From an uncultured Clostridia bacterium (GTDB lineage Bacteria; Bacillota; Clostridia; RUG12999), in NCBI GenBank assembly GCA_946555455.1, contig CAMNSU010000003.1:900-64899 (forward strand): a stretch of DNA of 64,000 nt, written 5' to 3'. Of this stretch, positions 28,913 through 29,075 are shown one piece after another. A program made the translations under genes and the position numbers. The notes beneath the pieces are model-generated. The model made no database searches. It was not told the origin of the DNA and saw only the letters and a list, made by a program, of their open reading frames with translations. Numbering within the stretch: position 1 is the first letter of the stretch; each line of letters starts with the position of its first letter.

Positions 28913-29075
28913 TACTTTCTAGTCATGGAATATCCGGACACGTGCCGGATATTCCATACCTCTCAGCCGCGAGCGTTTCGATAGGAACGCTGCGAGAGCG
29001 GACGCGGCTGCATGGGGGTGTCCACGAGGGGGACGGCTTGACAGAATATTTTACATTCTGGAAGGAGTCCCCCTC
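28913..29075 (+). repeat. intergenic repeat element copy B (hairpin-rich core)
   Basis: It matches 17003-17167 with a 57-nt identical block plus a 31-nt near-identical block. A closing stem CACGAGGGGGAC...GTCCCCCCTCGTG encloses an interior with TTGACA and GGAAGGAG. Confidence 0.6.

Follow-up and report, generated by a model that had tools for sequence, protein, structure and literature searches.

A previously uncatalogued, strongly folding element in a divergent promoter region of uncultured gut Clostridia, probably a modular interspersed repeat

The regulator-importer control region and its structured element

The region under study separates the gene for an AraC-family, YesS-like regulator from the divergently transcribed operon of an ABC sugar importer, a gap of 571 nt (28829-29399) in the window, by which we mean the whole 64-kb stretch of DNA analysed here (Table 1). 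Within this gap lies a strongly folding element of about 160-230 nt, a further copy of which is found in the same orientation at the tadA-MATE locus of the same window. We refer to the latter as copy A and to the copy in the regulator-importer gap as copy B, and to their sites as locus A and locus B, respectively. The two share a direct repeat of 96 nt with 96% identity (17013-17108 and 28923-29018), and each of two core 20-22-mers occurs exactly twice in the window when up to 3 mismatches are allowed, the chance expectation being 0. Neither nhmmer with --max nor a covariance model run with its filters off detected a third copy in the window. An earlier sequence-only reading of this DNA had described the segment at 28913-29075 as the second copy of a structured repeat, and the above results bear this out: the sequence there is as it was described, with the model-defined core running instead from 28921 to 29080. 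When compared with shuffled sequences, copy B folds with a z-score of -9.2 (at -95 kcal/mol) and copy A with one of -6.2. The block that varies between lineages at locus B exceeds the core, extending over about 28855-29085 and including the upstream palindrome H0. Likewise, the whole insert between the direct repeats flanking copy A is 16953-17181, with a 5' hairpin, P0 (UUUUGG/CCAAAA), included.

Table 1. Coordinates of the features at and around the two copies of the element in the window
Feature	Positions	Strand	Description
Solo palindrome without element	15146-15170		ATAATATACGC-TCT-GCGTATATTAT; same sequence as the target palindrome at copy A
Left direct repeat, copy A	16937-16952	+	16 nt, GCATATATTATACCAT; also the right arm of palindrome H0 (16923-16947)
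Core of copy A (P1-P2-P3)	17011-17173	+	Defined by folding and covariance model
Right direct repeat, copy A	17182-17197	+	GCGTATATTATATCAT; 14/16 identical; its reverse complement contains TGATATAAT
AraC-family (YesS-like) regulator gene	26552-28828	-	758 aa; Pfam HTH_18, HTH_AraC; RBS AGGAGG
Palindrome H0, copy B	28859-28885		CATCATAGCC-7 nt-GGCTATGATG; TATGAT boxes on both strands; terminator-like on the minus strand
Variable 5' segment, copy B	28886-28920	+	Starts GTGCTTT; shortened counterpart of hairpin P0, from alignments
P1 hairpin, copy B	28925-28957	+	13 bp, ATGGAATATCCGG / CCGGATATTCCAT, loop ACACGTG
P2 three-way junction, copy B	28959-29017	+	From fold and alignment of copies
P3 long hairpin, copy B	29023-29078	+	12-bp closing stem, internal loop, variable apical hairpin
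Promoter-like site of AraC gene	29087-29115	-	TTGAAA-17-TATACT with upstream TG; plus-strand reading TAGTATATCAT
Promoter-like site of ABC importer	29310-29338	+	TTGAAA-17-TATAAT, 11/12 matches; conserved in all orthologous loci
First permease gene of ABC importer operon	29400-30386	+	Pfam BPD_transp_1

Downstream of the importer the window encodes a 2554-aa ORF (33042-40706) whose DNA repeats internally with a period of about 1 kb (families D1-D6). Its orthologue contains the Pfam domains SLH, F5_F8_type_C, Metallophos and CHB_HEX_C_1, the architecture of a large, repetitive, glycan-related protein of the cell surface.

The element is composed of a series of hairpin modules. Palindromes analogous to the H0 of copy B also precede copy A and the copy in the mouse-gut MAG iMGMC-479 (L012). 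Other copies then open with the hairpin P0 (UUUUUGG...CCAAAAA), of which copy B keeps only a shortened remnant; a longer version of this variable segment is present in a relative with 90% identity in the AraC protein (L028). The P1 hairpin has three covarying pairs, one of which is found as G-C, C-G and U-A. The P2 junction comprises an outer stem CCUC/GGGG, a main stem CAGCCGCG/CGCGGCUG, an arm AGCGUUUC-GNNA-GGAACGCU and a mini-hairpin GC-GAGA-GC. Its sequence is nearly invariant in seven of the eight copies, and the main stem of L018 has each of its eight pairs exchanged (CGCUGUUC/GAACAGCG). The P3 hairpin of copy B is closed by CACGAGGGGGAC (29023-29034) and GTCCCCCTCGTG (29067-29078); this is the extended closing stem noted in the earlier reading, having five C in its 3' arm rather than the six given there. 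The internal loop of P3, GGCUUGAC / GGAAGGA, is conserved, nine P3 pairs show compensatory changes, and the stems and tips of P3 differ between copies by whole complementary blocks.

Two motifs within P3 had been proposed as signals that the element might donate to the locus, and neither holds up in this role. The TTGACA at 29038-29043 is part of the copy-conserved loop motif GGCUUGAC; there is no -10 box 16-18 nt downstream of it, and a promoter scan returns no plus-strand promoter there. The putative RBS GGAAGGAG (29060-29067) also sits inside P3 and is followed only by GTG-ATG-TAA. A coding function for the element itself is ruled out, since indels of 2 and 18 nt, changes in the loops and hairpin-wise replacements break any frame and leave no conserved reading frame across the copies.

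The element family is previously uncatalogued. Searches with Rfam recovered 0 matches in the window at the gathering threshold, nothing relevant over copies B and A at E-values up to 10 or 5, and nothing relevant over four other loci at E-values up to 1. Accordingly, we reject a known RNA family, be it a riboswitch, sRNA or ribozyme. A P2 20-mer gave 4 matches in viral contigs, all of them chance occurrences within coding sequence, and no match came from four further viral scans using patterns of P1, P2 and P3; we hence see no link of the element to phages.

A maintained fold on the plus strand

Using RNAalifold on eight copies, we obtained a consensus structure of 52 pairs. Across these copies 97.4% of the cells retain pairing, a figure that drops to 43-49% once the partners are shifted by 1-3 columns. 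Compensatory changes are observed at 21 of the 52 pairs, compared to 9.0 +/- 1.8 in shuffles (none of 500 shuffles being as high), a count that overstates the number of independent events because many of the changes are module exchanges and several rows of the alignment are related by descent. Even with the counts thus inflated, it is safe to state that pairing is maintained across the copies.

The two strands differ in their capacity to fold. Read on the plus strand, the alignment has G-U pairs in about 27 cells distributed over 9 pairs and A-C mismatches in only 3 cells, and the minimum free energy is lower on the plus than on the minus strand in seven of the eight copies, by up to 15 kcal/mol. 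This bias, together with the better folding energy, indicates that the plus strand is the one under selection to fold, either as RNA or as single-stranded DNA. The clean covariation combined with one invariant junction makes the element a good candidate for a functional RNA.

A scan of the plus strand found no intrinsic terminator after P3, the sequence that comes next being UUUCGAAA or UCGUGAUG. Moreover, every copy is located before the start of a gene and not after the end of one. We therefore set aside an intrinsic terminator or a SPRITE-like repeat as an explanation for the fold.

Promoter context, mosaicism and turnover at orthologous sites

At locus B the promoter-like site of the AraC gene points through the element toward that gene. 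Alignments with relatives at 78% and 67% identity show this site to be conserved as TTGCAA-17-TGnTATAAT, and it is hence ancestral rather than brought in by the element. Copy B sits between this extended -10 promoter and the AraC start codon, with the predicted 5' UTR of the regulator holding the element in antisense; the distance from the -10 box to the start codon is about 87 nt in an element-free relative versus about 250 nt in the window. Thus, a structured multi-copy element is inserted in the divergent control region, as the sequence-only reading held. That reading had also placed copy B in the leader of the importer; this finds no support, the operon having its own conserved promoter-like site about 230 nt downstream of the element. 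The location between the AraC promoter and start codon implies that the regulator, rather than the transporter, is most directly affected. It is therefore the control of the regulator, instead of that of the transporter, which might plausibly have been rewired at this locus, going by the arrangement of the predicted sites.

Comparable boxes surround the other copies. The reverse complement of an extended -10 box (TGnTATAAT) is found just 3' of the element at every locus, being weaker in L012. In plus-strand terms, the motif TATTATAYCAT follows every copy (again in a weaker form in L012) and occurs 13 times in the window versus 2.1 expected. Its reverse complement is TGRTATAAT, the extended -10 consensus of Gram-positive promoters. 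We reject it, as a general rule, as a part of the element or a target duplication, since it is an extended -10 box, is over-represented and, at locus B, is ancestral. On the opposite side, a TATAAT-like box lies 0-4 nt before the GTRCTTT at the 5' end of the element at five loci, with no -10 box at this edge in L018, L013 and L005. These plus-strand boxes are consensus-like, that of copy A alone passing a promoter scan. At locus A a second promoter box is additionally located between the element and tadA. In 7 of 7 loci or variants the 5' end of the element faces the start of a divergent gene, and the genes adjoining the copies are heterogeneous, including tadA/MATE, AraC/ABC, a TPP-riboswitch gene, a Cu_amine_oxidN1 gene and others. 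In iMGMC-479 the element lies immediately upstream of the riboswitch-led gene; the TPP riboswitch match there (L012:1-117, minus strand) scores 47.2 bits with E = 1.5e-6, the gathering score being 54.3.

The empty version of locus A contains a palindrome with 14-bp arms, CATGGTATAATAGA-9 nt-TCTATTATACCATG, which presents TGGTATAAT on both strands, face to face. The motif GTATAAT-N6-30-ATTATAC has no occurrence in the window, and hence a perfect face-to-face palindrome of the L031 type does not survive in this genome. The solo palindrome listed in Table 1 is positioned about 100 nt upstream of a minus-strand GH88 gene. Two additional palindromic regions are found in the window. At 11535-11700, back-to-back extended -10 boxes (ATTATACCATGTCCGTAAAGCGGATCGGTATAAT) upstream of a small PadR-like minus-strand ORF are followed by hairpin modules starting TTTGTGCATC and a palindrome with arms of about 29 bp (11630-11693); L011 repeats 45 nt of this region upstream of its element, and the region may represent a related module set. 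At 55661-55700, a perfect palindrome with 18-bp arms (TTAATCCTTATTGATATA-T-TATATCAATAAGGATTAA) occurs just upstream of an ORF resembling a Fur-family regulator, for which it is probably the operator and, as such, unrelated to the element.

Related MAGs and metagenomes yielded six further loci or variants. With the exact P2a pattern, a scan across species-representative genomes returned 3 loci and one across JGI metagenomes returned 1. The loci include the orthologue of locus B (L010) and a second element locus (L011) in the MAG JAAWTG01, 'Clostridia bacterium ABMPRH_312_1', the above-mentioned locus of iMGMC-479 and a locus on a JGI contig (L013), with L005, L018, L028, L029 and L030 being found by look-ups of neighbouring proteins. 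The loci or variants recovered number about seven, from at least two GTDB species plus metagenomes, which is a lower bound: only about seven were found because the scans required an exact match to one P2 type, and the different P2 of L018 indicates that this pattern was too narrow, so that both breadth and copy number come out too low. For the MATE protein, the closest named relatives (about 60% identity) come from Paludicola and Acetanaerobacterium.

We observed that orthologous sites differ in what they carry. Variant a (P0a-P1a-P2a-P3a) is present at locus A in the window, L014 and L015, and variant b (P0b-P1b-P2b-P3c) is found at the same locus, between two palindrome arms, in L018, L029 and L030, which are 95-98% identical in the flanking proteins. 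In a species at about 83% identity the site is empty, with an intergenic region of 161 nt (L031-L036, the six loci shown out of 23 contigs). In an 87% relative (L022), locus A is occupied by about 95 nt of unrelated inserted sequence with the 12-nt direct repeat TATTATACCATG on either side, and the same promoter box has therefore been duplicated there by a second, independent insertion. This insert (L022:2243-2501) has two hairpins, one of them terminator-like (AAAAATGC-AAAA-GCATTTTT). The element is present at locus B in L010, where the DNA of the locus is about 95% identical, and in L028; in the 78% relative P1-P3 are missing and different hairpin modules, one of them P0b-like, are present, and the 67% relative has nothing comparable. 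In the 78% relative (L024:2011-2500, minus strand) a TGGTATCAT box precedes TTTGTGCATC, the P0b-like hairpin (GCCGGTTCCGAGCG...) and two further hairpins, and an AATAGA/TCTATT palindrome abuts the ancestral -10 box. The pool of such hairpin modules seems to be wider than the P1-P3 unit.

Orthologous sites are hence empty, or hold another variant or another insert, rather than all having the same sequence with conserved flanks and no copy variation; this favours the mobility proposed in the sequence-only reading. The presence of different variants at the same site in strains 95-98% identical, at palindromes of core promoters, suggests that the process is targeted and was active recently. Logan short-read contigs from five samples end inside the element, as expected of a multi-copy repeat. 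The element thus breaks short-read assemblies and may create chimeric joins, which bears on the quality of MAGs. Elsewhere in the window, a 5.4-kb block (19285-24677) with six minus-strand genes, including those for a MarR protein, an MFS transporter, an Fpg/Nei protein and a DUF1848 protein, is lacking in close relatives (L010/L018, L019 and L022), in which Ham1 is directly followed by GH123; this is a strain-level indel adjacent to the loci studied here.

Comparison of the copies with each other reveals that the modules come in different combinations. For instance, the P2 that accompanies P3 of type b has a GCAA loop in L011 and a GAUA loop in copy B, whereas P3 of type c goes with P2a in L013 and P2b in L018. 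Similarly, an 18-nt insertion in the P1 loop is found on two different P1 stems. These combinations indicate that the copies recombine. In L005 a different P1 is joined to the P2 and P3 of copy B: there, in sample SRR33949416 (L005:2434-2560 and L017:1-78), a P1b hairpin links the ABC operon, exactly at the P1/P2 border, with a different upstream gene, Cu_amine_oxidN1; the AraC contig of this sample stops at the element, and a contig from another sample (L006) begins exactly at TCAGCC. The L005 junction may reflect either recombination between copies or a de Bruijn-graph assembly chimera.

The ends of the element lack terminal inverted repeats: the 5' ends (GTRCTTT..., AATAAATGTAC...) are not reverse complements of the 3' ends (...GTCCCCCTTTCGAAAG, ...CTCGTGATGTAAA, ...CTTCTTGGAAAT). 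The inverted repeats that are present are the arms of H0, which belong to the target and are also seen in empty sites. Flanking duplications are uneven, amounting to 14/16 at copy A and at best a weak 9/12 at copy B, with none in L018, and we found no transposase or recombinase linked to the element. In lacking inverted termini, and with duplications that vary from copy to copy, the element falls outside the strict definition of a classical MITE. It nevertheless shares with MITEs an occurrence at seven or more loci or variants, insertion polymorphism between relatives, small size and the lack of an ORF, and with repeats of the bcr1/BOX type a multi-hairpin fold kept by compensatory changes. 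A REP or BIME is discounted, since the element is 160-230 nt long and has three or four different hairpins without a GTAG or CGTC head.

Interpretation and comparison with known systems

We consider it reasonably probable that copy B is a member of a non-autonomous, ORF-less, modular family of hairpin-forming interspersed repeats in an uncultured gut Clostridia lineage near Paludicola/Acetanaerobacterium. The unit consists of an optional P0, the 13-bp P1, the nearly invariant P2 junction and a long P3 with a variable tip; copies swap modules by recombination, and between strains an orthologous site may acquire a copy, lose it or have it replaced. Insertion or retention would be preferred between or beside paired -10 boxes, and host promoters could thereby transcribe the element on either strand; it is probably transcribed on one or both. 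At locus B, copy B would turn a predicted 5' UTR of about 80 nt for the AraC gene into a structured one of about 250 nt, pushing the regulator gene off its promoter and leaving the importer promoter untouched. With about 170 nt of stable structure between a polysaccharide-utilisation regulator and its promoter, copy B is a candidate source of strain-level differences in the control of the sugar operon.

An alternative which we deem unlikely, yet deserving of weight, is that the copies are paralogous small-RNA genes, trans-acting or protein-binding, with their own promoters at the 5' edge, P2 as the functional core and P1 and P3 as scaffolds, the patchy distribution then reflecting gene turnover. 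The strong covariation and the G-U asymmetry of the plus strand are in line with this, as is a P2 that is identical in copies from different species amid varying stems; however, the P2 of L018 is wholly different in sequence, the modules are reassorted between copies and two variants share one site among nearly identical strains (95-98%). The TATAAT-like box 0-4 nt before GTRCTTT at five loci and the 5'-terminal hairpin P0 would suit the beginning of such genes, but there is no terminator after P3 to end them, and L018, L013 and L005 are devoid of the -10 box at the 5' edge. The heterogeneity of the genes beside the copies is also consistent with this alternative. On sequence grounds, the near-invariance of P2 across species amid drifting P1 and P3 would fit a functional RNA core and fit a selfish repeat less well. 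The repeat and RNA-gene readings are not mutually exclusive.

It is rather improbable that the element acts primarily as a DNA-level site, folded as single-stranded DNA or a cruciform and serving as the target or end of a recombinase of the IS200/IS605, REP/RAYT or IS110-like kind, with recombining copies rearranging the genome. Strand-specific pairing would also suit a functional DNA top strand, the two copies in the window share their orientation, and insertions are found in or beside palindromes; yet there is no transposase nearby, and P1 is unlike P3, whereas the ends of IS200/IS605 share one hairpin type. The exact joining of two loci at the P1/P2 border in L005 speaks for such a site, but a de Bruijn-graph chimera explains it equally well, given that the element is where contigs from that sample break off. 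Far less credible still is a cis-regulatory leader, i.e. a riboswitch or protein-dependent attenuator of the divergent minus-strand gene or of the downstream plus-strand operon: the element does lie in all loci between a minus-strand promoter-like box and a minus-strand gene start, and the H0 of copy B resembles a terminator when read on the minus strand, but the neighbours of the element are unrelated genes with no single family in a fixed orientation, the strand of the regulator mRNA is the worse-folding one, with A-C where the plus strand has G-U, orthologous genes manage without the element, a second promoter box intervenes between copy A and tadA, the downstream plus-strand gene is convergent in L012 and no Rfam family matches.

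A more specific proposal, to which we assign a low probability, is that P2 forms the core of a new functional RNA (guide, protein-recruiting or self-processing) of a mobile element that homes specifically to the short gap between paired extended -10 boxes and is transcribed by the host on both strands. Were this to be the case, it would represent an RNA-centred element, transposase-less or mobilised in trans, with a logic comparable to that of the IS110 bridge RNAs or retroelement RNAs, and as a byproduct it would create long sense/antisense overlaps coupling the expression of divergent genes. Complementarity between the P3 tip and the flanks, inspected by eye with a guide RNA in mind, was limited to 6-7-nt matches of inconsistent polarity, which we treat as chance.

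Returning to the interspersed repeat that we favour, small structured repeats are, to our knowledge, poorly catalogued beyond model pathogens, and we know of none described for this gut Clostridia lineage. Correia elements have 26-bp terminal inverted repeats, a TA duplication and their own promoter hexamers; in contrast, the promoter boxes of the present element belong to the ancestral flank, and its internal TTGACA is without a partner. What Correia and nemis have in common with it is that they are small repeats in promoter-proximal DNA. In Neisseria these are co-transcribed with their neighbours, and Correia can supply promoter boxes (PMC3184786), the role that the sequence-only reading had in mind for the element. 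REPs are 20-40 bp long, G+C-rich and usually located after genes (PMC3733652). REP/BIME palindromes and the IS elements that target them (IS1397, IS110 family) parallel our system in having mosaic arrays and short palindromes as landing sites, the H0 palindromes taking the role of target here. They differ in that the palindromes of the present system, which precede genes, are promoter boxes rich in A+T, and in that what has been inserted is a 160-230-nt unit devoid of a transposase.

Closer parallels are offered by bcr1 (group A bcr repeats) of the Bacillus cereus group and BOX of Streptococcus pneumoniae. The bcr1 repeats have terminal inverted repeats, and no inverted termini are seen in our element. 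Both bcr1 and our element are about 155-230 bp in size, intergenic, from Firmicutes and not conserved in position between close strains; bcr1 is transcribed, and the same is presumed for the element. Like BOX, bcr1 is a MITE-like repeat that is transcribed, folds strongly and varies in position among strains; its multi-hairpin fold is kept by compensatory base changes, and it is flanked by a constant 5-bp direct repeat (PMC3184786). The duplications at the element are instead inconsistent, there is no sequence similarity between bcr1 and the element, and the element alone has a nearly invariant module (P2) and sits at core promoter boxes. BOX, with its boxA-boxB-boxC architecture, resembles the P0-P1-P2-P3 architecture in being modular, with a module content that varies, strongly folding, ORF-less and intergenic, and BOX elements can alter the expression of neighbouring genes (PMC3184786). 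The two are unrelated in lineage and sequence, a mobilising IS has been proposed for BOX, and they diversify differently: BOX varies in the number of tandem boxB units, whereas the element varies by swapping alternative versions of its hairpins. With its reassorted modules, its turnover at orthologous sites and its lack of an ORF or terminal inverted repeats, the element has the behaviour of an interspersed repeat that is mobile or recombining, BOX and bcr1 being its closest counterparts.
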